From assembly GCA_965219345.1 (NCBI GenBank), contig OZ244732.1:192001-256000 (forward strand): a DNA stretch of 64,000 nt. Reading direction: 5' to 3'. Under the pieces are notes generated by a model. The model ran no database searches, had not been told where the DNA came from, and worked only from the letters and a program-made list of their open reading frames with translations. Position numbers and translations under genes: made by a program. This stretch comes from Nitrosopumilus sp. (GTDB lineage: Archaea; Thermoproteota; Nitrososphaeria; Nitrososphaerales; Nitrosopumilaceae). This document shows positions 1 to 59,050 of this stretch, in pieces; position 1 is the stretch's first letter; every line of letters starts with the position of its first letter.

Positions 1-3000
1 CAGGCCTGACGGGAATGTGTCTTGTGAACCTACTGAGAAAGAGTCGACAAAGGTAGCAGTGGACACGTCAAAGGCGGCGGTTAGTGTGTACTGGTGTACG
101 GCATCGTTATCGCTACTAATACCAGTACTCACTACAAACATCCTTGTTCCGTCATTAGAGAAGGCCATGCCGGTTGATTCCGAGTCTTGTAGATCTACTG
201 GGAAGGAGCTGAGAAGGGGCGGAAGAGGGATGTCATCTATGCTGCCCGTGTTTCTGGTGTATGCCAGGAGGATGACATCATTGCTGTCAAGCGTATCGTC
301 AAGGGCAAGGGCTACCGTGTTGTTTGTAACAGCGGTGATTCCGGTCACGGCCGGGTCTGTGGATATGGTGCTGGACAGCGCAAAGTCTTCCGGTGCCGCA
401 CCGTTTATTGTGACGTTTTCGGACAGCACGATGTTAATTGTTGATGTGCTGGCAGTTGCAATGGAGGACACGGTTGGAGGCGCGTCATCGGTTGTGCCGG
501 TAAAGGTCTGGTCTGCTGCCGGGTTTGATTCCGCGTCAACCACGGTGCCAGGTGGAGCGATGTAAGTTATAACTGGAGCATCGGATGTTGTGATGCCGGA
601 GACGGTAAGGGTTATGGTGTTGTCCGTACCGGCGGGATTGGTGTTTGCCGTCACCGTTCCGGTGGAGAGGGTGAATCCTTCGCCGTTTGTGGTTGTGACG
701 TCTATGTCCTCGCTGTACGTCAGGAGTATCTCGGTAGCCGAGGTCACGGCGGCCGCGATGATTTCCGGTGGAACGGTATCATCTATTGGGGGATCAGTGC
801 CATCCGGTGGTGGCGATGGCGATGCAATGTTGTTTGTAACTGTAGTTGCCGCAAAGCTGGCAAGCGAGTTTGGCTGTGAGAATAGCATAAACGGCTCGGG
901 CAGCGCGTACCGGTATACGGCATTGCTGTCACTGCCTGCGACAAACATCTGCATTCCGTCACCGGAGAAGGTCAGGCCTGCCGGGGATGAGTCATGTGAT
1001 TCCACAGAGAAGGAGCCGACAAAGTCGGCATCGGATACGTCAAAGGCGGTGTCCAGCGCGTACTCGTTTATGTCATTGCCGTCATCGCCCGTGACAAACA
1101 TCTGCATTCCGTTGGCAGAGAAGGCCAGGCCGGTCGGGTTTCTGTCCTGTCGGACTACCGGGAAGGAGGTGTCGTCAAAGCTGGCAGACGATACGTCAAA
1201 GGGGGCGGTTAATGCGTACTGGTATACGGCACTGTTGCCAATGCCTGCGACAAACATCCTGGTTCCGTCAGCAGAGAAGGCCAGGTCCCGCGGATTTATG
1301 TCCTGTGAGGATATCGAGAAGGAGGTGACAAAGGAGACATCCGATGTGCCGGCGACATTGGATATGTCAAAGGCGGCGGATAATGCGTACTGGTGTACGT
1401 TACCGCCGCCGGCACTGCCCAGAACAAACATCTTTGTTCCGGTGGCAGAGAAGGTCAGGCCCCGCGGATTTATGTCCTGTGAGGACACGGAGAAGGAGGT
1501 GACAAAGGTGGCAGTCGATACGTCAAAGGGGGGAGTTAATGCGTACTGGTATACGGCATTGTCAGAGAGATCTACGACAAACATCCTGGTTCCGTCAGTA
1601 GAGAAGGCCAGGCCTATTGGGGATGAGTCTTGTAAGTCTATCGGGAAGGAGCCGGCAAGGTGGGCGGCAGGACCGTCACCTATGCTGCCCGTGGTTCTGG
1701 TGTATGCCAGGAGGATGTCATCGTCATGATCAAGCGTGCCGTCAAGGGAAAGGGTGACCGTGTCGGCAGCTGCGGCGGCAACCGTGATTCCGGTCACGAC
1801 CGGATCTGCGGTTATGTTACCAGACAGCACAAAGTCTCCGGGTGCCGCACCGTTTATTGTAACGTCTTCGGACAGTATGATGTCAATTGCACTTGTCGAT
1901 GTGCCGGAAGTTGCAATGGAGGACACGGTTGGGGGGGCGTCATCGGTTGTGCCGGCAAAGGTCTGGTCTGCCGCCGGGTTTGATGCGGTGTCTGTCACGG
2001 TGCCGTCGGATGCGGTATAGGTTATATCCGGAGTATCGGATGTGTCGGTAATGCCGGAGATCGTAAGGGTTATGGTATTGTCCGTACCGGCGGGATCGGT
2101 GTTTGCCGTTACCGTTCCTCCGGTGGTGGAAAGGGCGAATCCCATGCCGTTTGTGGTGCTGACATCTATGTTCTCGCTGTACGTCAGGGTTATGCTGGCA
2201 GCCGAGGTCACGGCAGCCGCGGTGATTGCTGGCGGAATAGTGTCCGGCGGAATGTTGTTTGTAACCATAGTTGCCGCAAAGCTGGCAAGGGAGGCCGACT
2301 GTGAGAACAGCTTGAACGGTTCGGACAGGGCGTACCCGTGTACGGCATCACTGGCATTGCCGGCATCGCTCACTACAAACATCCTGGATCCGTCATCGGA
2401 GAAGGTTAGGCCCCTAGGTGATGTGCCCTGGAAACCTAGCTGGAAGGAGCCGGCATGGGAGGCAGTCGATATGTCAAATGGGGCGGTTAGTGCGTACCGG
2501 TATACGGCATTGCTGTTACCACCCACTACAAACATCCCGTATCCGTCATTGGAGAAGGTTAGGCCTATCGGGAAGTCGTCCTGTGATTCCACCGAAAAAG
2601 AGATTAAACTGGAGGAGGCAGCAGAGGCAGTCGATATGTCAAAGGCGGTGTCCAGCGCGTACTGGTGTACGGCATCGTTGTCACTGCCCGTGACAAACAG
2701 CCTGGTACCGTCATTGGAGAAGGCCAGGTCCTGTGGCTCTGCGTCTTTTGAGACTATTGGGAGAGAATCAACAAAGGTGGCATCGGATATGTCAAAGGGG
2801 GCGGTTAGCGCGTACTCGTTTATGTCCTGATCAAAGGAACCTACGACAAACATCATGGTACCGTCGTTGGAGAATGTCAGGCCGTGTGGGGTCAGATCCT
2901 CGGAGGCCACCGAGAGGGAGCTGTCAAAGGTGGCAGTGGATACGTCAAAGGGGGCGGTTAGCGCGTATTCGCTTATGGCGCTGTTATGGACACCCGAAAC

Positions 3001-6000
3001 AAACATCCTCATACCGTCATTGGAGAAGGCTATGCCAAACGGCATTATGTCCTGTGATGCCACCGGGAGGGAGCTGTCAAAGGTGGCGAAAGGACCTTCG
3101 TCTATGCTGCCCGTGGTTCTGGTGTATGCCAGGAGGATGTCATCGTCATGATCAAGCGTGTCGTCAAGGGAAAGGGTGACCGTGTTGGCAACGGCGGTGA
3201 TTCCGGTTACGACCGGGTCTGCGGTTATGTTACCAGACAGCACAAAGTCTTCCGGTGCCGCACCGTTTATTGTGACGTTTTTGGACAGCACGATATCAAT
3301 TGTTGATATGCCGGCAGTGCCAATGGAGGACACGGTTGGGGGGGCGTCATCGGTTGTGCCGGTAAAGGTCTGGTTTGCTGCAGGGTTTGACGCGGTGTCT
3401 GTCACGGTGCCAGGTGGAGCGGTATAGGTTATGGCCGGAGCATCGGATGTGTCGGTAATGTCGGAGACGGTAAGGGTTATGGTGTTGTCCGTACCGGCGG
3501 GATCGGTGTTTGCCGATACCGTTCCTCCGGTGGTGGAAAGGGAGAATCCCGTGCCGTTTGTGGTGCTGACGTCTATGTTCTCGCTGTACGTCAGGAGTAT
3601 CTCGGTAGCCGAGGTCACGGCGGCCGCGGTGATTGTTGGCGGGGTGTCATCCGGCAGCGGGGTGGTGCCGGTAAAGGTCTGGTTTGCTGCAGGGTTTGAC
3701 GCGGTGTCTGTCACGGTGCCAGGTGGAGCGGTATAGGTTATGGCCGGAGCATCGGATGTGTCGGTAATGCCGGAGATCGTAAGGGTTATGGTGTTGTCCG
3801 TACCGGCGGGATCGGTGTTTGCCGATACCGTTCCTCCGGTGGTGGAAAGGGAGAATCCCTGGCCGTCTGTGGTTGTGACGTCTATGTTCTCGCTGTACGT
3901 CAGGAGTATCTCGGTAGCCGAGGTCACGGCGGCCGCGGTGATTGCTGGCGGGGTGGTGTCCGGAATGTCGTTTGTAACTGAAATTGCCGCAAAGCTGGCA
4001 AGCGAGTCTGGCTGTGGGGATAGCGTAAATGGATCCGATAGCGCGTACTGGTATACGGAATCATTGCCATTACCCACTACAAATATCCTTGTTCCGTCAG
4101 CAGAGAAGGCCAGGTCGGTCTGTTCCGAGTCCTGTGAATCTATCGGGAAGGATCTGTCAAAGCGGGCAATGGATACGTCAAAGGGGGCGGACAGTATGTA
4201 CTCGTTTATGTCATTACCCACTACAAACATCCTGGTTCCGTCATCGGAGAAGGCCAGGCCAAATGGGAATTTCTCCTGTGAAGACACGGAGAAGGAGGTG
4301 ACAAAGGAGACATCCGATGTGCCGGTGACATTCGATACGTCAAAGGGGGTGGACAGCGCGTACTGGTATACGGCATTGTTGCCATCACCCACAACAAACA
4401 TCTTTGTTCCGTTGGCAGAAAAGGCCAGGCCCCGCACGGAATTGTCCTGCGAGGATACCGAGAAGGAGTCGGCATGGGAGGCAGTGGATACGTCAAAGGG
4501 GGCGGTTAGCGCGTACTCGTTTATGTCATTGCCGTCATCACCCGAAACAAACATCTTTGTTCCGTTGGCAGAGAAGGCCAGGCCCCGCGGATCTTCGTCC
4601 TGTGATTCCACGGAGAACGACTTGCTACTGTAGCTGGCAGAAGATACGTCAAACGGTTCAGTCAGCGCGTACTGGTATACCCTATCTTTTTGACTGCCTG
4701 TGACGAACATCTTTGTTCCGTCGTTGGAGAAGGCCAGGCCTACCGGGGTCCTGTCCTGTGAATCTACTGGGAAGGAGCCGGCAAAGGGCGGAAGAGGAAT
4801 GTAATCTATGCTGCCCGTGGTCTTGTCGTATGCCAGGCTGATGACATCATCATGATCAAGCGTATCGTCAAGGGAAAGGGTGACCGTGTTGGCAATGGCG
4901 GCGATTCCGGTCACGGTTGGGTCTGTGGATATGTCGCCGGACAGCGCAAAGTCTCCGGGTGCCGCGCCGTTTATTGTGACGTCTTCGGACAGCGTGACGT
5001 GAATTGTTGATGTGCCGGCAGTTGCAGCGGAGGACACGGTCAGCGTCGTACCGCCGGTCGTATCGATAAAGGTCTGGTCTGGTGCCGGGTTTGATTCATT
5101 GTCCGTCACGGTGCCGTCGGATGCGGTATAGGTCACATCCGGCGTATCGGAGCCGGCGGCGATGCCGGAGACGGTAAGGGTTATGGTGTTGTCCGAACCG
5201 GCGGGATCGGAGTTTGCCGTCACGTTCCCGACGGAGAGGGAGAATCCGGTGCCGTCTGTGGCGTTGACGTCTATGTTCTCGTCATACGTCAGGACTATCT
5301 CGGTAGCCGAGGTCAGGGAGGATGCAATGATTGTAAACGGTGAAATGTTGTTTTTGACCGGGGTTGCCGCAAAGCTGGCAAGCGAGTTTGGCTGTAGGAA
5401 TAAAGTAAACGGTTCGGATACCGAGTATTCGTATACGGCATCGTTGTCATCGCCCGTGACAAACATCCTGGTACCGTCACCGGAGAAGGCCAGGCCCGAT
5501 GGCGCGCCGTCCTGTGATTCCACGGAGAAGGAGTCGGCATGGGAGGCAGTGGATACGTCAAAGGGGGCGGATAGTGTGTACTCGTGAACCGAGTCACTGC
5601 TGGAACCCACTACAAACATCTTGGATCCGTCAGCAGAGAAGGCCACGTCCCGCGGGTCTGAGTCTTGGAGGGATACCGTGAAGGAGATGTCGTCATAGCT
5701 GGCAGTGGATACGTCAAAGGGGGCGGCTAGTGTGTACTGGTATACGTCACCGCCGTTAAAACCCGTTACAAACATCTTGGATCCGTCGGCAGAGAAGGTC
5801 AGGCCCTGCGGGGATGATTCCTGTAATTCCACGGAGAAGGAGGTGACATTGGAGACATCCGATGTGCCAGCGACATTGGATATGTCAAAGGCGGCGGATA
5901 ATGCGTACTCGTTTATGTCATTGTCTCCGTCACCCAGGACAAACATCTTGGTTCCGTCGTTGGAGAAGGCCACGTCCCGCGGGGCTGATTCCTGATCTGT

Positions 6001-9000
6001 CACTGAGAACGCTATGTTGTCATAGCTGGCAGTCGACAAGTCAAAGGGAGCAGTCAACGTGTGCTGGTGTACGACACCGCCTCCGCTGCCCAAGACAAAC
6101 ATCCTTGTTCCGTCAGCGGATAAGGCCAGGCCCTGCGGGGTCGAGTCCTGCGAGGATACCGAGAAGGAGATGTCAAAGGACGGAGGGACGGGAATGTCAT
6201 CTATGCTGCCCGTGGTCTTGTCGTATGCCAGGTTAATGACATCATTGCCATCAAGCATATCGTCAAGGGAAAGGGTGACCGTGTTGGCGTCGGCCGTGAT
6301 TCCAGTTACAGCCGGATCCGTGGATATGGTGCCGGACAGCGCAAAGTCTTCCGGTGCCGCGCCGTTTATTGTGACGTCTTTGGACAGCACGATATCAATT
6401 GTTGATATGCCGGCAGTGCCAATGGAGGACACGGTCGGAGCTGTACTGTCGGTCGTATCGGTAAATGTCTGGTTCGCTGCCTGGTTTGATGCGCTGTCTG
6501 CTACGGAGCCGTCGGATGCGGTGTAAATCACGTTTGGAGCATCGGATATGGTGATGCCGGAGACGGTAAGCGTTATGGTGTTGCCCGAACCTGCGGGATC
6601 GGTGTTTGCCGTCACTTGCCCGTCAGAGAGGGTGAATCCCTGGCCGTCCGTGGTTGTGACGTCTATGTTCTCGCTGTACGTCAGGACTATCTCGGTAAGG
6701 GAGGTCACGGCAGCTGCGGTAATTGTTGGCGGGGTCGTATCTGGTGGTGCAATGTTGTTTTCGACCAAGGTTGCCGCAAAGCTGGCAAGCGAGTTTGGCT
6801 GTGGGAACAACGTAAATGGATCCGACAGCGCGTACTCGCGTACGGCACTGTTCGTATTATCTAGAAGAAACATCCTGGTACCGTCACCAGAGAAGGCTAG
6901 GCCTGTCTGGAATACGTTTGGTGAGCCTACTGGGAAAGAGCCGACAGAGGAGGCAGTGGATACGTCAAAGGGGGCGGATAATGCGTACTGGTATGCGATG
7001 TTATCATTATCTATAACAAACATCCTGGTACCGTCACCAGAGAAGGCCAGGCCTATCGGGAATGTGTCTAAGCCTATTAGGAAAGAGTCGACAAAGGTGG
7101 CGGTGGATATGTCAAAGGGGGTGGTTAGTGTGTACTGGTATACGGCATCGTTGTTACGGCCTGTGACAAACATCCTGGTACCGTCACCAGAGAAGGCCAG
7201 GTCTATCGGGAATGTATCCTGTGATGATGGTGGGAAAGAGCCGACAAAGGTGACAGTGGATATGTCAAAGGGGGCGGATAATGCGTACTGGTGTATGTTA
7301 CCATCGCCAGAACTACCCGTAACAAACATCTTTGTTCCGTCAGCAGAGAAGGCCAAACCTCGTGGTACTGTCTCTTCCGTTGCCACTGAGAAAGAGGTGA
7401 CAGGGGAGGAGGCAGTGGATACGTCAAAGGGGGCGGCTAATGCGTACTGGTATACGGTATCGTTGTTACCACTCAAAATAAACATCCTATATCCGTCAGC
7501 AGAGAAGGCCAGGTCCCGTGGGGGGCTGTTTTGTGGCTGCTGTGAGAAAGAGCCGACAAAGGACAGAGGGGCAGGACCGTCACCTATGCTGCCCATGGTT
7601 TTGGTGTATGCCAGGTTAATGACATCATCATGATCAAGCGTGCCGTCAAGGGAAAGGGTGACCGTGTCTGCAATGACTGCGATTCCGGTCACGGCCGGGT
7701 CTGGGGATATGGTGCCAGACAGCACAAAGTCTTCTGGTGCCGCGGAGTTGTATGCGACGTTCTCGGACAGCACGATGTCAATTGCCGACGTGCCGGCAGT
7801 TGCAATGGAGGACACGGTTGGCGGCGCGTCATCGGTTGTGCGGTCAAAGATCTGGTCTGCTGCCGGGTTTGATGCGGCATCTGTCACGGTGCCAAGTGAT
7901 TCGGCATAGGTTATGACCGGAGTATCGGATGTGTTGGTGATGCCGGAGACGGTAAGTGTTATGGTGTCGTCCGAACCTCCGGGATCGGTGTTTGCCGTCA
8001 CTTGCCCGACGGAGAGGGTGAATCCTGCGCCGTCCGTGCTGTCGGCGTCTATGTTCTCGCTGTATGTCAGGGTTATGTTGGTAGCCGAGGTCACAGAAGC
8101 TGCGGTGATTGTTGGCGGGGTCGTATCTGGTGGAATGTTGTTTTCGACCGAGAATGCCGCAAAGCTGGCAAGCGAGTTTGGCTGTGGGAACAACGTAAAT
8201 GGCTTTGGCAGCGCGTACTCGTTTATGTTATCGTTATCATCACCCACTACAAACATCCTTGCTCCGTCAGCAGAGAAGGCCAGGCCCCGCGTGGTGCCAT
8301 CCTGTGAACGTACTGAGAAGGAGTCGACAAAGGCGGCAGTGCCTACGTCAAAGGGGGCAGTCAGCGCGTACTGGTATACTTTATCGCCACCAGAACCCGC
8401 AACAAACATCCTGGTACCGTCGGCAGAGAAGGCCAGGCCAATTAGGAGTGGGTCTTGTGAAGCCGCTGAGAAAAAGGAGCTAGAGACGGCAGTGGATACG
8501 TCAAAGGGGGCGGATAACGTGTACTGGTATACGGAACTGTCAGCGATACTCAGGACAAACATCTTTGTTCCGTCGTTGGAGAAGGCCAGGCCCCGCGGGG
8601 ATGTCGTTTCTGTTGACACTAGGAAGGAGCTGTCAGAGGTGACATTGGATACGTCAAAGGGGGCGGCTAGTGTGTACTGGTATACTTTATTGTTGTCATC
8701 ACCCACGACAAACATCCTGGTACCGTCGGCAGAGAAGGCCAGGCCTATCGGGGTTTCGTCCTCATCTGCCACCGAGAAAGAGTCGACAAAGGTGACATTA
8801 GATATGTCAAATGGGGCGGATAATGCGTACTCGTTTACGTCATCGCCGTCATCACCCGTAACAAACATCCTGGTACCGTTGTTGGAGAAGGCCAGATCTT
8901 GCGGGAACGATTCTTGTGAGGACACGGAGAAAGAGTCGACAAAGGATGGACGAATAATGTCATCTATGCTGCCCGTGGTTTTGGTGTATGTCAGGTTAAT

Positions 9001-9576
9001 GTCATCATCATGATCAAGCGTGTTGTCAAGGGAAAGGGTGACCGTGTCTGCAATGACTGCGATTCCGGTCACGGCCGGGTTTGTGGATATGTCGCCGGAC
9101 AGCACAAAGTCTTCGGGTGCCGTGGAGTTGTATGCGACGTTCTCGGACAGCACGATGTCAATTGTTGACGTGCCGGCAGTGCCAACAGAGGACACGGTTG
9201 GTGGCGCGTCATCGGTTGTACCGGTAAAGGTCTGGTTTGCTGCCAGGTTGAACCCCGTACCTAACAAAGAGTCAGGTGAAGAGGTGTAGATTATATCCGG
9301 CCTGTCGGATGTTGTGATGCCGGAGACGGTAAGCGTTATGGTGTCTGCCGAACCTCCGGGATCGGTGTTTGCCGACACTTGTCCGACGGAGAGGGCGAAT
9401 CCTGCGCCGTCCATGCTGTTGGCGTCTATGTTCTCGCTGTACGTCAGGACTATCTCGGTAGCCGAGGTTACAGAAGCTGCGATGATTGTCGGGTGCTCCG
9501 CCGCATGTGCCGGAACAATGGACAAAGAGGCCAACATCAGCGTGGAAATTAAAATAACAAAGGAAATTCTCTCCAT
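1..9576 (-). CDS. Giant secreted surface protein (>3192 aa, 3' end beyond window); repeated Ig/SwmB-like domains with inserted 5-repeat beta-propellers
   Basis: Hand translation from ATG 9576 gives MERISFVILISTLMLASLSIVPAHA|AEHPTII..., a signal peptide with an AxA site. The same frame at 1-100 reads AVHQYTLTAAFDVSTATFVDSFSVGSQDTFPSGL. The main series of + strand shadow ORFs shares one frame and the track reports no minus ORF in this frame, consistent with no stop or frameshift. Repeats FDVS-x-F-x-SFS-x-P-x-GLAFS-x-DGTRMFV-x-G. Confidence 0.9.
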   Translation of the reverse strand, partial: MERISFVILISTLMLASLSIVPAHAAEHPTIIAASVTSATEIVLTYSENIDANSMDGAGFALSVGQVSANTDPGGSADTITLTVSGITTSDRPDIIYTSSPDSLLGTGFNLAANQTFTGTTDDAPPTVSSVGTAGTSTIDIVLSENVAYNSTAPEDFVLSGDISTNPAVTGIAVIADTVTLSLDNTLDHDDDINLTYTKTTGSIDDIIRPSFVDSFSVSSQESFPQDLAFSNNGTRMFVTGDDGDDVNEYALSAPFDISNVTFVDSFSVADEDETPIGLAFSADGTRMFVVGDDNNKVYQYTLAAPFDVSNVTSDSSFLVSTETTSPRGLAFSNDGTKMFVLSIADSSVYQYTLSAPFDVSTAVSSSFFSAASQDPLLIGLAFSADGTRMFVAGSGGDKVYQYALTAPFDVGTAAFVDSFSVRSQDGTTRGLAFSADGARMFVVGDDNDNINEYALPKPFTLFPQPNSLASFAAFSVENNIPPDTTPPTITAASVTSATNITLTYSENIDADSTDGAGFTLSVGQVTANTDPGGSDDTITLTVSGITNTSDTPVITYAESLGTVTDAASNPAADQIFDRTTDDAPPTVSSIATAGTSAIDIVLSENVAYNSAAPEDFVLSGTISPDPAVTGIAVIADTVTLSLDGTLDHDDVINLAYTKTMGSIGDGPAPLSFVGSFSQQPQNSPPRDLAFSADGYRMFILSGNNDTVYQYALAAPFDVSTASSPVTSFSVATEETVPRGLAFSADGTKMFVTGSSGDGNIHQYALSAPFDISTVTFVGSFPPSSQDTFPIDLAFSGDGTRMFVTGRNNDAVYQYTLTTPFDISTATFVDSFLIGLDTFPIGLAFSGDGTRMFVIDNDNIAYQYALSAPFDVSTASSVGSFPVGSPNVFQTGLAFSGDGTRMFLLDNTNSAVREYALSDPFTLFPQPNSLASFAATLVENNIAPPDTTPPTITAAAVTSLTEIVLTYSENIDVTTTDGQGFTLSDGQVTANTDPAGSGNTITLTVSGITISDAPNVIYTASDGSVADSASNQAANQTFTDTTDSTAPTVSSIGTAGISTIDIVLSKDVTINGAAPEDFALSGTISTDPAVTGITADANTVTLSLDDMLDGNDVINLAYDKTTGSIDDIPVPPSFDISFSVSSQDSTPQGLALSADGTRMFVLGSGGGVVHQHTLTAPFDLSTASYDNIAFSVTDQESAPRDVAFSNDGTKMFVLGDGDNDINEYALSAAFDISNVAGTSDVSNVTSFSVELQESSPQGLTFSADGSKMFVTGFNGGDVYQYTLAAPFDVSTASYDDISFTVSLQDSDPRDVAFSADGSKMFVVGSSSDSVHEYTLSAPFDVSTASHADSFSVESQDGAPSGLAFSGDGTRMFVTGDDNDAVYEYSVSEPFTLFLQPNSLASFAATPVKNNISPFTIIASSLTSATEIVLTYDENIDVNATDGTGFSLSVGNVTANSDPAGSDNTITLTVSGIAAGSDTPDVTYTASDGTVTDNESNPAPDQTFIDTTGGTTLTVSSAATAGTSTIHVTLSEDVTINGAAPGDFALSGDISTDPTVTGIAAIANTVTLSLDDTLDHDDVISLAYDKTTGSIDYIPLPPFAGSFPVDSQDRTPVGLAFSNDGTKMFVTGSQKDRVYQYALTEPFDVSSASYSSKSFSVESQDEDPRGLAFSANGTKMFVSGDDGNDINEYALTAPFDVSTASHADSFSVSSQDNSVRGLAFSANGTKMFVVGDGNNAVYQYALSTPFDVSNVTGTSDVSFVTSFSVSSQEKFPFGLAFSDDGTRMFVVGNDINEYILSAPFDVSIARFDRSFPIDSQDSEQTDLAFSADGTRIFVVGNGNDSVYQYALSDPFTLSPQPDSLASFAAISVTNDIPDTTPPAITAAAVTSATEILLTYSENIDVTTTDGQGFSLSTTGGTVSANTDPAGTDNTITLTISGITDTSDAPAITYTAPPGTVTDTASNPAANQTFTGTTPLPDDTPPTITAAAVTSATEILLTYSENIDVSTTNGTGFSLSTTGGTVSANTDPAGTDNTITLTVSDITDTSDAPAITYTAPPGTVTDTASNPAANQTFTGTTDDAPPTVSSIGTAGISTIDIVLSKNVTINGAAPEDFVLSGNITADPVVTGITAVANTVTLSLDDTLDHDDDILLAYTRTTGSIDEGPFATFDSSLPVASQDIMPFGIAFSNDGMRMFVSGVHNSAISEYALTAPFDVSTATFDSSLSVASEDLTPHGLTFSNDGTMMFVVGSFDQDINEYALTAPFDISDATFVDSLPIVSKDAEPQDLAFSNDGTRLFVTGSDNDAVHQYALDTAFDISTASAASSSLISFSVESQDDFPIGLTFSNDGYGMFVVGGNSNAVYRYALTAPFDISTASHAGSFQLGFQGTSPRGLTFSDDGSRMFVVSDAGNASDAVHGYALSEPFKLFSQSASLASFAATMVTNNIPPDTIPPAITAAAVTSAASITLTYSENIDVSTTNGMGFALSTTGGTVTANTDPAGTDNTITLTISGITDTSDTPDITYTASDGTVTDTASNPAADQTFAGTTDDAPPTVSSIATSGTSTSAIDIILSEDVTINGAAPGDFVLSGNITADPVVTGITVAAAAADTVTLSLDGTLDHDDDILLAYTRTTGSIGDGPAAHLAGSFPIDLQDSSPIGLAFSTDGTRMFVVDLSDNAVYQYALTPPFDVSTATFVTSFSVSSQDINPRGLTFSATGTKMFVLGSAGGGNVHQYALSAAFDISNVAGTSDVSFVTSFSISSQDINPRDLAFSADGTRMFVAGIGNSAVYQYALTAPFDVSSASFDDTSFPVVRQDRNPTGLAFSANGMQMFVTGDDGNDINEYALDTAFDVSDADFVGSFSVESHDSSPAGLTFSGDGMQMFVAGSDSNAVYRYALPEPFMLFSQPNSLASFAATTVTNNIASPSPPPDGTDPPIDDTVPPEIIAAAVTSATEILLTYSEDIDVTTTNGEGFTLSTGTVTANTNPAGTDNTITLTVSGITTSDAPVITYIAPPGTVVDAESNPAADQTFTGTTDDAPPTVSSIATASTSTINIVLSENVTINGAAPEDFALSSTISTDPAVTGITAVTNNTVALALDDTLDSNDVILLAYTRNTGSIDDIPLPPLLSSFPVDLQDSESTGMAFSNDGTRMFVVSTGISSDNDAVHQYTLTAAFDVSTATFVDSFSVGSQDTFPSGL
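3356..3954. repeat. Near-identical 309-bp tandem duplication of one Ig-like domain within the giant gene
   Basis: 3356-~3645 and 3665-~3954 are nearly identical; shadow ORFs at 3431 and 3740 are 309 bp apart. Confidence 0.85.
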
Positions 9577-9587
9577 CTCTTTATTTT

Positions 9588-9608
9588 CACACACACACCC
9601 CCCCCCCC
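9588..9608 (-). repeat. G11 homopolymer + (TG)5 microsatellite just upstream of the giant gene ATG
   Basis: + strand (CA)5 at 9588-9597 followed by C11 at 9598-9608. Confidence 0.9.
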
Positions 9609-45028: not shown

Positions 45029-46507
45029 AGAGATTATGCGTAATCGATCATAACGTCAGCACAATACGTGGTTTTACGACACACACACGTCAGCGGCAGA
45101 ACGGCTTGCAGCCAGATAATCCGCACAACACATGAACAAAAACGCCAGAATCCAAAATGCGGTGCGCAGCCCTGCAGCACCGCCGCGTGCCCCGAGATCA
45201 CATCGTCAATCCGGTGGCACCCGCTGCCACCCGCGGCGCTAACCGAGAAATCTTCTGCGCAGCTTGGGGCTTCCCTGTGAAGCGTCCTCATCAGGTGCAG
45301 GTTTACCAGGCCCGCAACGACATTCATCTCGCAGTTGAGCTCGTCCTCGGTGCCGCCGTACGGCTCTGTCATCCGGGCATACTGCTTTATCCTGCCTATG
45401 CTGTTCTCCACTGTTATCCTGATGCCGCCTGCCTTCTGGTTGCGCTTCTTTTGCCCATCTGTCAGATTTCGGGCCTCCTCCTTCTTCTCTCCCTCTCTTT
45501 TTCCCGGTCTTTTGTGCGGCATGATTACGTTTGCGCCCGGAAGATCCTTTTGCATTCCCTGATACCCAAGATCCATGTATGCGGTAAACCTCTCGCTTTT
45601 TGGATTGGACTCGTCGTGCATTTTTTCAGCCCACCTGCCAAACGGAATCGGATCTTCCCTGAGCAGTGTTATGTCATGGGTCTTTCCAACGACGGTGCTG
45701 CCGATTCCCAGGATGATGTTGTTGTTTGTAGCGGACACTGGTTGTGTTGAACGTATGCCTCTTTTTCTTGCCTGAATACATCTCCTTTCTTCTGTCCTTC
45801 CTGCCGGAACGGCGCACGGGTATGTGGGTGCCGTCGACCAGCAGCGTTCTTGTGCCCCTGCCCGGAATGAACTCCTTTAGCTCCTTTACGGTCTTGCATT
45901 CTGATACCGCCTCTGAGATCCTGCGCGGCGTCGGAAGTATCGTCCCAAGCGTCTTATTGCAGAACTGAAGGTACCTGCATACGTTGGACTGGTCTATCCC
46001 AAAGAATGCCTCAAGGGTTCCCTGCGTCGGATTGTCCTTGAGGCGCAGCAAGCAATGAGGAGCGCGTGCCTTGGATAGAGGCCGCAGCGGTTGCCGGGAT
46101 CGTCTGATCTCATTTCGTTGTTGCGGAACAGCGGCGCGCATCCTCTGACTTTATGATTGCCTCCTCAAAAACCTCTCCAGGATGTATTCGAACTCTTCTT
46201 TGCTGTGCAGCGTTGCCGCATGAAGCAGCGCCCCGTCATTTATTATGCCATCTAACGTCTCAAACCTGTGCAGGAGCGCTGCCCTGCCTGCGTCCACTGG
46301 GATGTCGATGCCATGTCTGGTCTTCCACAGGCCGCGCTCAAGATCCAGCTCCCTGCCTTTCTGCCCCCGAGTCTTCCTTAGTTTTTTGATCTCCTGTTGC
46401 AGCTGGCGTATGGTTTGATCAGATGAATCTGGCATTTGATGTGTGGCGTGATCGTGTCTGATCTAAACTTATCGGCGTGGGGTTTGGAGGGATTACGCAT
46501 AATCTCT
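45029..46507 (-). mobile_element. IS5-superfamily (ISL2-like, HTH_Tnp_4 + DDE_Tnp_4) IS with multiply frameshifted transposase
   Basis: Perfect 17-bp TIR AGAGATTATGCGTAATC (45029-45045 / 46491-46507), AC on both flanks; fragments FGIDQSNVCR, VDGTH..YSGKKKRH, HD, DLGYQG, RITVENSIGRIK; GC-rich. Confidence 0.88.
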
Positions 46508-47019: not shown

Positions 47020-48420
47020 ATGTCGTACTGGTTAAAAGTTCCACCACGTAGGCAGATCTCAGAGTTCATAGTGTTTGCTCTTGGTCAAAATGGAATGACT
47101 GTGAGCCAGATAGAAAAAGATATCGGCAGACAAATTCCCGGAAGCTCAACACAGCATCAATACAAAGACATGCCGGTATGGCATCGCAGAAAAGACATAA
47201 TAGAATATGTTGCACAAGAGATGAAACTGCATCAAAGCATGTGGGGGGACAAGAGAACCTCAAACGAGTTTTACAGTGCAGCAGATCAAGAGATATCCAA
47301 ACTCAAACAAAAAAACATCATGATAAACTGGCACAAGTCTGGCAATGTGGCGATATTCCGCCTAGATCCAAAATACAAGATGTCCGCAAAGCCGGCCGCC
47401 AGTCTAGAAGCTGCAACATCTCCAACACTCCAGGATTCTCGAACAGACGACATGAAAAGGATATTTCTATCAATAATCACACAGTCTAGAAAGGACAATA
47501 CATACAAGTTTGCGCTTGGAAGGGTGCTCTTGGAACATTGCTATGATAGCAGTGCCGGTGAGAATTCCTATAAAATTCCGTACACGCATCTTGCAAAAAA
47601 ATTTCTGGAATATTATTGGCATCAAGAGTGCAAGTTTAAGATAAAACAGGATTTTAAAACTAAAAGCATCCCCAAGGTCATCCATGCAATACGGTATGTG
47701 TTCGGAGAAAACACACCTGGTGATTTCAGTCTAATTGATGAGGACGATAAGGCCAAGGCAGAAAGCAAAATACTTTGTAATGTCTTTGGCCATGCAAGAT
47801 CAAAGACGTCATTAGTGGTTCCAAGATTTCAGAAAATAATGGCCGGCAAATACGGCGTAGAGAATCAGATATTTTATGATTATGACGACGATGAAAAGAT
47901 GATCTATCTCAAACCGGAAGCATTTGATTTTTTCAAGACCAACTATGGAATATTATCCAAAGCCCTTCTTGCAGAATGGGCCAAATTCCTCGAAAAGATC
48001 AACGGGTCATTGCCAAGACTGGTGGCAAAGATAGAACAAGACGAGTTTGAACGAGGATCCCTGACTCCATTCAGAAAGGCCTATGCCAAACATACGAATC
48101 ATTGTTTTTACTGCTGTGACAAGCTAGAACACAGATATACCCATGTGGATCACTTTCTTCCATGGTCGTACATATTCGAGGATCAGGCATGGAACCTGGT
48201 CTTGGCCTGCCAGGAATGCAACTGTAAAAAGAGCAGCTCTCTTCCGCAACAGGAGTTCCGTGATATGTTGATCAGAAGAAACCACGAATATGAAAATCAG
48301 ATTCCGCTTTTGAGAAAATCCTTGGCATTCATAGACACCAAGATTGGCTGGAGATCTGAGATAAAGGGACACTACAAAAACTGCGAAGAGTATGGATTCA
48401 ACGTCATTAAAATGCCTTGA
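47020..48420 (+). CDS. HNH endonuclease with N-terminal putative DNA-binding domain (defence/type IV restriction-like)
   Basis: NTYKFAL motif; CFYC, HVDHFLPWS, WNLVLACQECNCKKS. Confidence 0.85.
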   Translation: MSYWLKVPPRRQISEFIVFALGQNGMTVSQIEKDIGRQIPGSSTQHQYKDMPVWHRRKDIIEYVAQEMKLHQSMWGDKRTSNEFYSAADQEISKLKQKNIMINWHKSGNVAIFRLDPKYKMSAKPAASLEAATSPTLQDSRTDDMKRIFLSIITQSRKDNTYKFALGRVLLEHCYDSSAGENSYKIPYTHLAKKFLEYYWHQECKFKIKQDFKTKSIPKVIHAIRYVFGENTPGDFSLIDEDDKAKAESKILCNVFGHARSKTSLVVPRFQKIMAGKYGVENQIFYDYDDDEKMIYLKPEAFDFFKTNYGILSKALLAEWAKFLEKINGSLPRLVAKIEQDEFERGSLTPFRKAYAKHTNHCFYCCDKLEHRYTHVDHFLPWSYIFEDQAWNLVLACQECNCKKSSSLPQQEFRDMLIRRNHEYENQIPLLRKSLAFIDTKIGWRSEIKGHYKNCEEYGFNVIKMP

Positions 48421-49246: not shown

Positions 49247-49701
49247 GAATTTTCTATTACAGAGAATGGTGGGGGGAAATCACAATTATTAAAAAAATAA
49301 TAACGATATTTCTTCTGACCATTCTTCATATGTAACACGCTGTCAGTCATTTACTGACAATTCTGAGAATCAGGCAATTAAATTCTTAAAAAGAATGCTA
49401 CCAGTTACAATATACTCACAATGCAGGTTTGGGAAATGACCTCTTCTGTTCCATGACATTCACGCACCAAAAAGCATTGGTAACGGTCTAACCACTGCAG
49501 ATGCCAGCTAGTCTCACTTGGAGGTGAAAAATCACAAATTGGCAAATCAAATTTCCCCATTAAATACAAAATCTTCTCAACAAGACATGTATTCACCATA
49601 TCATTATTTTGAATCAAAAAAACAGACCTGTGACAAACATTTGTCAGGGGTTACAAAACCTTGTGAAGATTAATATTTTCAATAATACCAATAAATCAAC
49701 G

Positions 49702-51054
49702 TTGGAGAAACAGAAATTTCTCATTGTCGGAAGTGGAGGGCGTGAAAGTGCTTTTGCACTACAGCTTGCGCAAGACACACAAGTTTATGCAGTTATCTCT
49801 CACAAAAATCCGCTCATTATTCATTGTGTGATACAGTCAGGTGGCAAATATTTGGTCGGTGATGCCGATGATCCGCAAACAGTTCTGAACTTTGCAAAAG
49901 AGAACAACATAGATTACGCTTTTGTCAACGCAGACCAGCCATTGGCTAATGGTGTTGTTGATGTTCTGCTTGATAATAATTTTAAGGCAATTGGTGGAAC
50001 AAAGGATGCAACACGCATAGAGTGGGATAAAATTTACTCCATTCAAATGATGCAAAAAATGTGTTCGGAGTTTACGCCATTTTACAAAGTTGTTTCAAAA
50101 ACAGAAGAACTACCAGATGCAATAGAATCATTTGAATCAAAAAGACTAGAGATAGTGGTAAAACCGCAAGGACTAACAGGAGGCAAAGGTGTCAAAGTAA
50201 TGCCTGAACATCTACCAACATATCAAGACTGCACCGACTATGCGTCTCTTCTTCTTGAGAAAAACCCTGACCAAAAGGTTCTGTTGGTAGAAAAGCTGCA
50301 AGGCATAGAGTTTACAATCATGGGAATTACTGATGGTACAAACTTGGTTGTATCTCCTGCAAGTTATGACTATCCGTTCAGACATGAGGATGACAAGGGT
50401 GCAGGAACCGGAGGAATGGGTTGCTTTACAAATTCAGAGAAAAAACTTCCGTTTATGAGTGACAAGGACTTGGATGATTGTAGATACATAATGCAAAAAA
50501 TAATTGATGAGATAAAACAAGACAATCTGTTTTTTAACGGTGTTATCAATGGTGGCTTTTTTAAAACAAAAAAAGGCATAAAATTCATGGAGTTTAACGG
50601 TCGCTTTGGAGATCCTGAAGGATTAAACATTCTAAGCATTCTTAAAGGATCATTTTCAGAATTGTTGATTCATCTTTGGAACAAGACGTTGTCTGATGAT
50701 GTGGTTTCGTTTGTCAAAAAAGCAAGTGTTGTAAAATATCTGGTTGCAAAGGAATATCCAGAGCGAAGCGACAAGGCAATCTCTTTTAGCATTAATGAAA
50801 AGGCAATTGCAGATCTTGGCGTAAAAACATTCTTTGCATCCTGCATCAAGACAGGAGCACAGCAATATGAAACCCTGAAAAAATCACGAGTTGTCGCATT
50901 CAGTGCACTTTCAGACAACATAGATGAAGCTTCGTCTTTGATAAATAAAATAATTGAAATGCATGTCAATGGTGATTTGGAGTACAGACATGATATTGGC
51001 TCTCAAAAGAGTCTGGAAAAATTAAAAAAAATCAATGCTGAATTAACTCATTGA
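49702..51054 (+). CDS. purD: Phosphoribosylamine--glycine ligase (PurD-like)
   Basis: LIVGSGGRE, VVKP.GL.GGKGV, G..TGGMG, EFNGRFGDPE, YRHDIG; TTG start inferred. Confidence 0.88.
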   Translation: MEKQKFLIVGSGGRESAFALQLAQDTQVYAVISHKNPLIIHCVIQSGGKYLVGDADDPQTVLNFAKENNIDYAFVNADQPLANGVVDVLLDNNFKAIGGTKDATRIEWDKIYSIQMMQKMCSEFTPFYKVVSKTEELPDAIESFESKRLEIVVKPQGLTGGKGVKVMPEHLPTYQDCTDYASLLLEKNPDQKVLLVEKLQGIEFTIMGITDGTNLVVSPASYDYPFRHEDDKGAGTGGMGCFTNSEKKLPFMSDKDLDDCRYIMQKIIDEIKQDNLFFNGVINGGFFKTKKGIKFMEFNGRFGDPEGLNILSILKGSFSELLIHLWNKTLSDDVVSFVKKASVVKYLVAKEYPERSDKAISFSINEKAIADLGVKTFFASCIKTGAQQYETLKKSRVVAFSALSDNIDEASSLINKIIEMHVNGDLEYRHDIGSQKSLEKLKKINAELTH

Positions 51055-51201
51055 GAAACCATACCATTTTAGAGATTCAAAAATACAGATAATCTTCATC
51101 TTTAAATTCAATTTTTTCTGTGTTTTACAATGCCAAAACTACAAGTATTCTCAAAAACAAAAAAAGAAAATTACGGAATACAAAGACATGATTCCTACAA
51201 T

Positions 51202-51724
51202 AGAGATTTGCGTAATCGATCATAATGTCAGCACAATACGTGGTTTTACGACACACACGTCAACGGCAGGACGGCTTGCAGCCAGACAATCCGCACAACA
51301 CATGAACAAAAACGCTAGAATCCAAAATGTGGTGCGCAGCCAGCAGACCCAAAGTAGTTTCTCGATCCTCGTGATAAAACAAAAACGCTAGAATCCAAAA
51401 TGTGGTGCGCAGCCCTGCAGCACCGCCGCGTGCCCCGAGATCACATCGTCAATCCGGTGGCACTCACTGCCACCCGGCGCTAACCAAGAAATCTTCTGCG
51501 TAGCTTGGGGCTTCCTCTGTGAAGCGTCTTCATCAGGTGCAAGTTTACCAGGCCCGCAACGACATTCATCTCGTAGTTGAGCTCGTCCTCGGTGCCGCCG
51601 TACGGCTCTGTCATCCGGGCATACTGCTTTATCCTGCCTATGCTGTTCTCCACTGTCACCCTGATGCCGCCTACCTTCTGGTTGTGCTTCTTTTGCTCAT
51701 CTGTCAGATTTCGGGCCTCCTCCT
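51202..51724 (-). mobile_element. Truncated second copy (3' end) of the IS5-like element
   Basis: Near-identical to 45029-~45484, including the TIR (one base missing); fused to an IS66 fragment. Confidence 0.88.
51305..51414. repeat. 37-bp perfect direct repeat flanking a 36-bp unique insert (CRISPR-like unit) inside the IS copy
   Basis: AACAAAAACGCTAGAATCCAAAATGTGGTGCGCAGCC at 51305 and 51378; a single copy with no insert in the sister IS at ~45135. Confidence 0.85.
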
Positions 51725-52099
51725 ACGGGTACCGCATGCCAATCAAGATGATATCTGAGAACAGCGGGAGGAACGCCGGCATACACATATCGACAGGAGG
51801 CGTCTGCAACATACTTTACAGGCTCGGGGCGTGCCTGCACATACCTGCACGCCGAATCCTTGCGTCCCTGCAGAAGGCAAGCGTACTGCACATGGACGAG
51901 ACGTCGTTTAGCATAAACGGGAAACTGTCTGGGTGTGGATACTGCTAAACCCGCACACCGGGGAGTCGTTTTACGCAGTACGGAAGAGCAGGGGGCAGGC
52001 GTCTTGCGGGAGCTGCTGCCCGGCTAGGACGGAACAGTGATGTGCGACGGATGGAGGCCGTACGGCATGTTCGGCGGGCCAAATGACGTGAGCAAGTAC
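51725..52099 (+). mobile_element. IS66-family transposase fragment (central part) plus TIR
   Basis: ISTGGVCN, LHMDETS, W.W, CDGW.PY; ends CAAATGACGTGAGCAAGTAC. Confidence 0.8.
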
Positions 52100-56953: not shown

Positions 56954-59050
56954 CTATATCAACAATATCAGAACTACGAATAGTAATCCTGCTCCAAATA
57001 CGAATAGATAGGATTGCGAGACACCAGTCTGCGTTCCCTGGACAACTTTTGCGCTCCATCCAACTGCTTTCTGGAATCCATCGTTCATACCATAATCTAT
57101 TGCTGTTCTTTCAAAGTATCTGAACACACCTCTTGCCAGCCATAATGGTGCTGCAACAAAGCACCAGTATATGACGGCATTAAGATACCATCTGTTTAAG
57201 AGAAGTTTGTGAATACCATAAAAGAACAGGTTAGAGTTAACAAATTTTACGGGATCAACCCATCTACCAATATAGAAGATGTAACCTAGTCCAGCTCCTA
57301 TTGCAAACGCTGCTAATGATGAACCAACTGCAGCAGGATTAAGCCCTTGCGGGAATGCTGGTAGAATTGACGCCTCTATTGCATAATGTTCGGTGTGTAT
57401 ACCAAAGGAATTTTCAAGATAGTCTGTAAACGTATGGTGAAGTCCTTCTTCCATTGATAATCCAATAAGACCGATTCCAATAGTAAGAACTGCAAGAATT
57501 CCATATGGGACCCACATTGATAATGGTGCTTCATGGATATGATGCCCATCTTCTTCCATCTTTTCAATGTGTCTGCTCTTCTTTCCAAAGAAGACCAATC
57601 CCATCATTCTTGTAGTATAGAAAGCGGTAATGACTGCAGTTACTACAGCAATTGTAAACAGTGGAAGTGCCCATTCATTTCCGGATTCATAGACAGCAGC
57701 AAAGATTGCATCCTTACTCCAGAAACCTGTTGTGATAAATGGAGCACCCATCAAACCAAGACCAGCTGCCCACATGAATGCATAGGTTTTCTTCATCTGT
57801 TTTCTTAGACCTCCCATATCTGTCATAAATCTAGAGCCGACAACATGCAACAGAGAACCTGCTGCCATGAATAACGAAGCTTTGAACATCGCGTGGGAAA
57901 TTAAATGGAAGAATCCTGCAGTGTAACCATCAACATATTGATAAGATAATCCTGCGACACCCAATGCCATCATCATATAACCAATTTGGGAACCAGTGGA
58001 ATAAGCAAGAACTTTCTTAATTTCAGGATTGACCATTGCTTGTGTTGCAAGCAATAGTGCCGTAATTGCGCCAACCCAAGCAACAATCTCGAAGAATTGA
58101 TCAGCAAGAATTCCTGCCGCTCCCAATGCAAATACAAGGGGGCCTATTCTTGCAACCAAGAACACGCCTGCCTTAACCATAGTCGCTGCGTGAATCAATG
58201 CAGACACGGCAGTAGGACCAGTCATTGCTTCTAACAGCCATTCATTCAGCGGGAATTGTGCTGACTTTCCAACAGCTCCTCCAAAGATTAAAACAAACGC
58301 AGGAACCAAAAGCCCTTGAGAGGCCATTGTAACTGCCCATTCAGTATCTCCGATTAATTCTTTGAATCCAAAAGTACCCGCATACAAGAATATCAGGAGC
58401 ATACCTGCAATCATCATTACATCACCAACCTTGGTCATGATGAATGCCTTCATGCCAGAATGGGTTGGAGAATAGTAATCCAACATACCAAGAACAGTAC
58501 GTCCCTCAGTACCAACATGATCTTTCTTCTTGTCACGATACCAAAAGCTGATCAATGCATACGATGCAAGACCTACACCTTCCCATCCAAAGAATACTTG
58601 AAGCAGGTTATCAGACATGACAATCAACTGCATTGAACCAATGAAGAACATCATCCAGAACCAGAATCTTGTAATGTCTTTATCGCCTTTCATGTATCCC
58701 GTACTGTAAATCAAAATGAGAAATGAAATCCAGCCAACAACGTTTGACATTATAATGGAGAGCGGATCCGCCAAGATGCCAGCCTTAAGGCCAAGTGACT
58801 CGATCCATGGAATTTGATTATGTATTTCGCCGGCCTCCAAGGCAATTGGGATCATTGATGCCGCAGATAATGTACTCATCAAAGCAAATCCAACTGCAAC
58901 ATACCCGGTTGCATGTTTTGAAAGGTTGTTAGTTGCGTGTTTGGATAATTTCCCAATTCCAGGTATGACAAGAGCTGCAACAAATGGGAGAATCCAAACT
59001 AACCAAGCACTTGTTGCCCCAATTTCAAACCCCATTAACTCAGCTGCCAT
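56954..59050 (-). CDS. nuoL: NADH-quinone oxidoreductase subunit L
   Basis: GKSAQFPL.WL.AM.GPT.VSALIHAATMV. Confidence 0.96.
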   Translation of the reverse strand: MAAELMGFEIGATSAWLVWILPFVAALVIPGIGKLSKHATNNLSKHATGYVAVGFALMSTLSAASMIPIALEAGEIHNQIPWIESLGLKAGILADPLSIIMSNVVGWISFLILIYSTGYMKGDKDITRFWFWMMFFIGSMQLIVMSDNLLQVFFGWEGVGLASYALISFWYRDKKKDHVGTEGRTVLGMLDYYSPTHSGMKAFIMTKVGDVMMIAGMLLIFLYAGTFGFKELIGDTEWAVTMASQGLLVPAFVLIFGGAVGKSAQFPLNEWLLEAMTGPTAVSALIHAATMVKAGVFLVARIGPLVFALGAAGILADQFFEIVAWVGAITALLLATQAMVNPEIKKVLAYSTGSQIGYMMMALGVAGLSYQYVDGYTAGFFHLISHAMFKASLFMAAGSLLHVVGSRFMTDMGGLRKQMKKTYAFMWAAGLGLMGAPFITTGFWSKDAIFAAVYESGNEWALPLFTIAVVTAVITAFYTTRMMGLVFFGKKSRHIEKMEEDGHHIHEAPLSMWVPYGILAVLTIGIGLIGLSMEEGLHHTFTDYLENSFGIHTEHYAIEASILPAFPQGLNPAAVGSSLAAFAIGAGLGYIFYIGRWVDPVKFVNSNLFFYGIHKLLLNRWYLNAVIYWCFVAAPLWLARGVFRYFERTAIDYGMNDGFQKAVGWSAKVVQGTQTGVSQSYLFVFGAGLLFVVLILLI

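Follow-up and report, generated by a model that had tools for sequence, protein, structure and literature searches.

A repeat-insert-repeat unit within an insertion sequence of Nitrosopumilus sp. as a likely footprint of off-target CRISPR spacer integration

The insertion sequence and its repeat-insert-repeat unit

The window analyzed here is a stretch of 64 kb (C1:192001-256000) from a Nitrosopumilus sp. genome of 1.91 Mb in two contigs (designated G000). Its first 9594 nucleotides are occupied by an open frame on the minus strand that runs off the window and exceeds 3,198 aa, with a G+C content of approximately 55% against 36% for the genome and matches to SWM_repeat, beta-propeller/lactonase-like and Big_5 domains; this frame (1-9594) probably encodes a giant surface protein. 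Farther along, a 466-aa open reading frame with an HNH endonuclease domain (47020-48420, plus strand) is found in a stretch of raised G+C content (43-46%), located between the first of two copies of an insertion sequence (IS) and purD (49609-51054). The two IS copies, A and B, bound this stretch on either side.

Four copies of this IS end, designated A to D, are present in the genome, and the element has a G+C content of about 55% compared to the 36% of the genome. Copy A (45029-46507, starting at C1:237029, minus strand), delimited by alignment and Pfam, is full length at 1,479 bp and retains both terminal inverted repeats, which begin AGAGATTATGCGTAATC; its transposase gene, also on the minus strand, is broken into three reading-frame pieces. 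These have weak matches to Pfam, namely to DDE_Tnp_4 at 25.6 bits (cut-off 24.8) and to HTH_Tnp_4 at 26.1 bits (below the cut-off of 27), on which the assignment of the element as IS5/Harbinger-like is based. Copy B, identified by alignment at 51198-51724 on the minus strand, is a truncated fragment of ~530 bp consisting of a terminal inverted repeat, a non-coding subterminal region and the 3′ end of the transposase gene, and the other copies extend past 51721-51724, where it ends. Copy C is located at C1:968415. Copy D (C1:37382-37844) is 463 bp in length, having kept both inverted repeats and lost its whole interior.

Copy B contains the 37-mer AACAAAAACGCTAGAATCCAAAATGTGGTGCGCAGCC twice, at 51305-51341 and 51378-51414, with 100% identity and a start-to-start distance of 73 nt; the 36 nt enclosed (51342-51377) bear no relation to either flank. 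A reading of the window made from the letters alone (the sequence-only reading) had described a 37/36/37 structure with this same 36-mer between identical repeats, and this geometry is exact. The bases bordering the two repeats are unequal at either end (G versus A on the left, A versus C on the right), which fixes the duplication at 37 nt and the insert at 36 nt. A perfect repeat of 37 nt cannot have arisen by chance within 64 kb, and exactly two copies of it are present locally.

Copy A carries the 37-mer a single time at 45135-45171, as the sequence-only reading had also reported, with C in place of the T of copy B at two positions in the alignment, and thereby provides the empty target site. 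The 37-mer is likewise found once in copy C, where the transposase frame ends ~70 nt ahead of it, so the target lies in non-coding subterminal IS DNA; placing the stop codon of copy B by reference to copy C puts it at ~51480-51482, 65 nt from the second repeat. Members of the IS family are otherwise only ~70% identical and conserve AAAATG..GTGCGCAGCC.TGCAGCAC in this non-coding subterminal region, as seen at window positions 45135-45190 and 51378-51433 and at loci L011 and L022 of a second species, G002. The duplicated target ends within this conserved core.

The unit is also present in copy D, where a repeat, the identical 36-mer and a repeat occupy C1:37490-37599; copies B and D are the only places in the genome in which the 36-mer is found, and both of these carrier copies are defective. 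Because copy D contains the same unit, the integration most likely predates the copying of this IS to a second locus, and the fresh formation proposed by the sequence-only reading, which had viewed the unit as a natural snapshot of the process, gives way to an older event preserved in a separately rearranged IS copy. The same reading had dated the duplication to after the divergence of the IS copies on the basis of two SNPs shared by both repeats. Both repeats of copy B do differ from copy A, however copy D blurs this dating: around an identical insert its two repeats read C/C, where those of copy B read T/T, and its second repeat carries two further changes. Upstream of the unit, two SNPs are common to copies B and D as opposed to A and C.

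Contigs from four public sequencing runs belonging to two studies carry units of the B and D types, providing sequencing support for the insert. In run X7, a 103-nt contig spans 51312-51414 without differences, although the source sample may be among these runs and this contig is therefore not independent support; run X11 yields a 56-nt B-type contig, and the D-type unit, deletion junction included, is found in runs X8, X10 and X11. Runs X1 to X6 were left out, fewer than one tenth of the sampled words being present in them. The depth of both unit types is near that of the unique flanks, roughly that of a single copy. The depth within the IS itself (window 51210-51736; X7, X8 and X10) is 10-40 times that of the unique flanks, indicating that the samples hold many more IS copies than the four in the assembly, with the additional copies possibly belonging to other organisms.

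The native type I-G locus and ectopic units across the genome

The genome encodes a 561-aa Cas4g/Cas1g fusion protein that contains no stops and matches NF049935 at 754 bits, and a Cas2 protein, both directly upstream of a CRISPR array of 164 repeats (C1:1641728-1653821). Genes for csb2, cas7g, cas8g/csx17 and cas3g follow beyond the array on the opposite strand, and this gene set identifies the locus as type I-G. A Cas1 fragment, an open frame of 83 aa, is located far from the CRISPR locus at C1:1123019-1123234. Native repeats measure exactly 36 nt, 163 of the 164 copies being identical and the remaining one differing by one base. The 163 periods of the array are distributed over 71 (8), 72 (37), 73 (35), 74 (34), 75 (23), 76 (13) and longer values (13), giving spacers that are mostly 35-40 nt after subtraction of the repeat. 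The IS-unit insert of 36 (or 37) nt falls within this range, and its period of 73 nt, at the peak of the distribution, is matched by 35 of the 163 native periods.

The sequence-only reading had pointed to cas1/cas2 and arrays with 37-bp repeats as what should be sought in this genome; intact adaptation genes and a long array are indeed present, however the native repeat measures 36 nt and not the 37 nt duplicated in the IS. The 37/36 arrangement fits a 36-bp duplication and a 37-nt spacer in which one terminal base is by chance the same as the adjacent base of the flank. The chance of one such coincidental end base was calculated in this analysis as ~0.44.

Perfect direct repeats 24 nt or longer, with periods of 40-200, were sought throughout the genome outside the array and tandem repeats. 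Nineteen of the 131 non-tandem pairs recovered fall into the single cell defined by repeats of 33-38 nt and gaps of 33-40 nt, while the neighboring cells contain 0-3 each. The repeats of these units are 36 (nine units), 37 (four), 38 (two), 35 (two) and 33 nt (two) in length, the periods are all 71-76, and the 19 units have 19 different repeat sequences distributed chromosome-wide, with 4, 5, 4 and 6 per 400 kb. Outside the window, the first repeats of the perfect units start at C1 positions 92343, 321414, 333443, 404166, 426365, 429362, 497370, 650323, 915773, 919312, 966989, 1135073, 1335276, 1339961, 1503080, 1504869, 1510756 and 1519410. A looser scan recovered approximately ten more well-formed units with 1-3 mismatches between the repeats, including that of copy D, the limits of these imperfect units being set by eye; examples are found at C1:43477, 88226, 601719, 869601, 1173661, 1248140, 1339320, 1638625 and 1824845. 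Five doubtful units with periods of 66-70 were also obtained. Every ectopic unit consists of exactly two repeat copies, and no multi-spacer neo-arrays are found among them.

These ectopic units are insertions, some of which split genes. The unit at C1:426365 divides a UDP-glucose/GDP-mannose dehydrogenase gene, the upstream and downstream fragments of which match positions 2-27 and 9-93 of PF00984, respectively, and the unit at C1:1503080 interrupts an IS1595-type transposase gene. When the unit at C1:1519410 is deleted in silico, open frames of 439 and 257 aa become a single frame of 666 aa; a Pfam search with both halves of this broken gene yielded an fn3 domain in one of them and nothing else. 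DNA searches of 80 congeners gave no match to this region and hence no empty site for it. Likewise, no clean orthologous empty site was identified in G000 for the four units of a related genome, G063, described below. The targets of the units at C1:92343, 404166, 1335276, 1824845, 919312 and 1503080 also occur singly elsewhere (3-6 copies in all), and these six units, like the IS unit, accordingly have paralogous empty sites in the same genome.

The units are clustered, with eight neighbor gaps below 6 kb against 2.5 expected (P = 0.0016), and tend toward G+C-richer stretches. Four units are found within 16 kb (C1:1503080-1519518) and three within 5 kb (C1:1335276-1340070), in regions that are G+C-richer than the genome. 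Such clusters may mark dispensable islands or preferred targets.

Cas1 is encoded by 56 of 151 genomes of the genus, ~11 of which have the long fusion form. The same scan was applied to the first 400 kb of each of six complete genomes from the genus. In the 1.2 Mb sampled from three Cas1-free congeners (G010, G106 and G118) no true units were found, the two hits representing one coding tandem repeat, whereas 12 units would be expected at the density of G000 (P = 5e-6). The three fusion-bearing congeners gave four true units in G063, which has the same native repeat, one in G170 and none in G164. Many congeners also contain Cas1 homologues in open frames of ~410-425 aa, in up to three copies (G169), which, judging by their length, we presume may be casposases.

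Inserts, flanking motifs and target sequences

In seven of the 29 well-formed units, the insert has a counterpart of 36-39 nt elsewhere on the organism's own chromosome, with no mismatch or one. Six of these match another chromosomal place and the seventh matches a multi-copy family; the insert of one doubtful unit also matches the host chromosome. One example is located in the window itself, where the protospacer of the unit at C1:1519410 (57804-57840, minus strand, 37 of 37 nt identical) lies within a core gene encoding a NuoL-like NADH:quinone oxidoreductase (56954-59050, minus strand; PF00361 and PF00662). In contrast, none of the 163 array spacers matches the host chromosome beyond two partial matches of 18-19 nt (Fisher P = 9e-7 for 7/29 versus 0/163). 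Such a difference would follow if a self-derived spacer killed the cell when expressed from the array and did no damage in a unit that escapes processing.

For the 36-mer of the IS unit, no match was found in viral contigs, in metagenome contigs or, allowing up to three mismatches, in 150 congeners, and with no protospacer, no PAM can be read for this unit. The seven protospacers of the other units have no sequence motif in common beside them, whichever way they are read. TTN, the PAM of a bacterial I-G system, fits two of the seven. The lack of a common PAM may slightly weaken the case for integration by the Cas machinery, or off-target events may use unselected prespacers.

The target of the IS unit has a best identity of 11/36 to the native repeat, which is at the level of random sequence; with such repeats, present locally in just two copies, the unit does not qualify as a canonical array of this genome. 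Over the targets of the ectopic units, the mean best identity is 12.5 of 36 against 10.8 in a control that was not matched for composition (P = 0.0002), and the duplicated targets are G+C-richer than the genome (43% versus 36%); this likeness is therefore not relied upon. On the minus strand, the IS-unit target is preceded by ...GCTGCAGG, with CAGG just upstream as its sole resemblance to the leader, and the native leader ends in ...TGACAGG. AGG lies at most one or two bases from the junction in 7 of the 23 units considered, compared to 7.7% of random sites, and in 4 of 19 units in G000; this enrichment was noticed post hoc, after the units of G063 had been seen, and is only a lead.

Origin of the IS unit and relation to known systems

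The exact geometry, the empty alleles, the intact adaptation genes, the recurrence of the unit throughout the genome and the self-derived inserts together make it very likely that the IS unit is the footprint of off-target spacer integration carried out by the type I-G Cas4/Cas1-Cas2 that this genome encodes, to which we would attribute the catalysis at this site. In the proposed mechanism, Cas4/1-Cas2 would miss the leader-repeat junction and direct two staggered attacks ~36 bp apart at subterminal IS DNA, joining a prespacer of ~36-37 nt to the target, and gap repair would then duplicate the sequence between the attacks. Integration would have occurred once, in the ancestor of copies B and D, and the filled IS lineage would have been copied to a second locus before decay left B truncated and D internally deleted. 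The repeats being unlike the native CRISPR repeat, the unit is most likely inert, serving neither crRNA processing nor defense.

Within this explanation, a single origin of the two units is strongly favored, even though the T/T of copy B and the C/C of copy D require an extra event under it, the homogenization of the copy-B repeats. The variant in which one and the same prespacer entered B and D in two independent integrations at a preferred IS site would account for this difference without gene conversion, however it requires an identical 36-mer with the same ends and orientation twice, and it leaves aside that B and D are closest relatives on the flanking SNPs, as a single origin predicts; we consider it unlikely.

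A duplication with filler DNA produced independently of Cas proteins, through a replication template switch or end-joining repair, with the CRISPR-like dimensions arising by coincidence, would be compatible with the absence of a protospacer or PAM for the IS-unit insert and with a target unlike the CRISPR repeat. Such processes give no reason for a peak at 36-bp duplications with 33-40-nt filler, and the genome nevertheless has such a peak, which stands well above the neighboring cells, matches the native array and is absent from the 1.2 Mb sampled from the Cas1-free congeners, making this origin very improbable for the IS unit.

It could also be supposed that the long form is ancestral and that copies A and C lost one repeat and the insert, given that half of the four genomic copies (B and D) are of that form and that recombination between 37-bp repeats is mechanistically easy. 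In the outgroup species G002, however, each of the three distinct and much more divergent IS copies contains a single homologous 37-mer and none further within 160 nt, indicating that the short form is the older state. The grouping of B and D on two flanking SNPs makes one gain as parsimonious as one loss, and the 18 other units with identical geometry at unrelated sites would be left unexplained, so that an ancestral long form appears highly improbable.

Residence on an IS that has spread to two loci, with one spacer between two repeats, recalls the mini-CRISPR arrays of viruses and proviruses (PMC8616872) and raises the idea of a functional mini-array that borrows host Cas proteins. According to that work, the known mini-arrays have repeats identical or very similar to those of the host and spacers that mostly have targets, whereas the repeats here are duplicated IS sequence resembling the native repeat no better than random sequence does, on IS copies that are both defective; a functional mini-array is hardly credible. 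An assembly artefact is practically out of the question, with the unit present at two loci of a two-contig assembly, a run contig matching it exactly over 103 nt and D-type contigs in three runs. The proposal of ectopic spacer integration made by the sequence-only reading is therefore supported: run contigs contain the insert, the lineage has both Cas1 and an array of corresponding dimensions, and the form with a single 37-mer is the older one.

Events of this kind are already known. Nivala, Shipman and Church (2018, Nat Microbiol), as relayed in 10.1101/148544, PMC6698737 and PMC11788318, found off-target integration generating neo-CRISPR arrays in E. coli, for which over-expression of type I-E Cas1-Cas2 was required, with only circumstantial cases in two other species. 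The units described here resemble those arrays, so far as these sources describe them, in that DNA of spacer length has entered a non-CRISPR site between duplicated stretches as long as a repeat, and as possible seeds of new loci. They differ in being natural, archaeal and of type I-G, in numbering ~29 in one genome, and in including self-derived inserts, gene disruptions and one unit riding on an IS. In vitro, Cas1-Cas2 of Pyrococcus furiosus also integrates off-target (PMC6698737), using non-CRISPR sites without other proteins and with a spacing set by the enzyme, as would be the case here; the sites used by that enzyme share repeat-like features, while the similarity of the present targets to the native repeat is marginal.

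A biochemical counterpart is the type I-G Cas4/1-Cas2 of Methanosarcina barkeri, which has the fused Cas4/Cas1 architecture in common with G000 and matures and integrates prespacers without other factors (Dhingra and Sashital 2023, PMC10504553). Its fidelity in vitro is 80-90% on the leader side and 60-70% on the spacer side, with some non-specific integration; the study uses a plasmid carrying leader and repeat, and genomic off-target sites fall outside its subject. A 2026 preprint lists off-target acquisition as one of three proposed origins of isolated arrays. A literature search covering part of the journals listed no natural genome with many ectopic units and none for ammonia-oxidizing archaea. 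What is added by the present case is that the event is natural, archaeal, located on an IS and one of about thirty in its genome.

More broadly, the integrase is probably promiscuous by nature in G000 and at least two fusion-bearing congeners, having made ~30 insertions over 1.9 Mb that have broken genes and seeded proto-CRISPR units, one of which was spread by an IS. The unexpressed units would then form an unselected archive of captured DNA, about a quarter of it self DNA compared to none in the array. According to the work cited above, off-target integration has so far been known mainly in over-expressing E. coli and in vitro, with only circumstantial natural cases, and this genome offers dozens of natural events together with empty alleles, protospacers, broken genes and relatives with and without the enzyme. 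It makes testable what Cas4/1-Cas2 recognizes away from the leader, how often self DNA is captured before selection, what adaptation costs the genome, and whether new arrays start in this way and travel on mobile elements. If the interpretation is correct, comparison of the ectopic units with the array would provide a natural measure of how autoimmunity filters CRISPR memory, and also of the mutational cost of adaptation.
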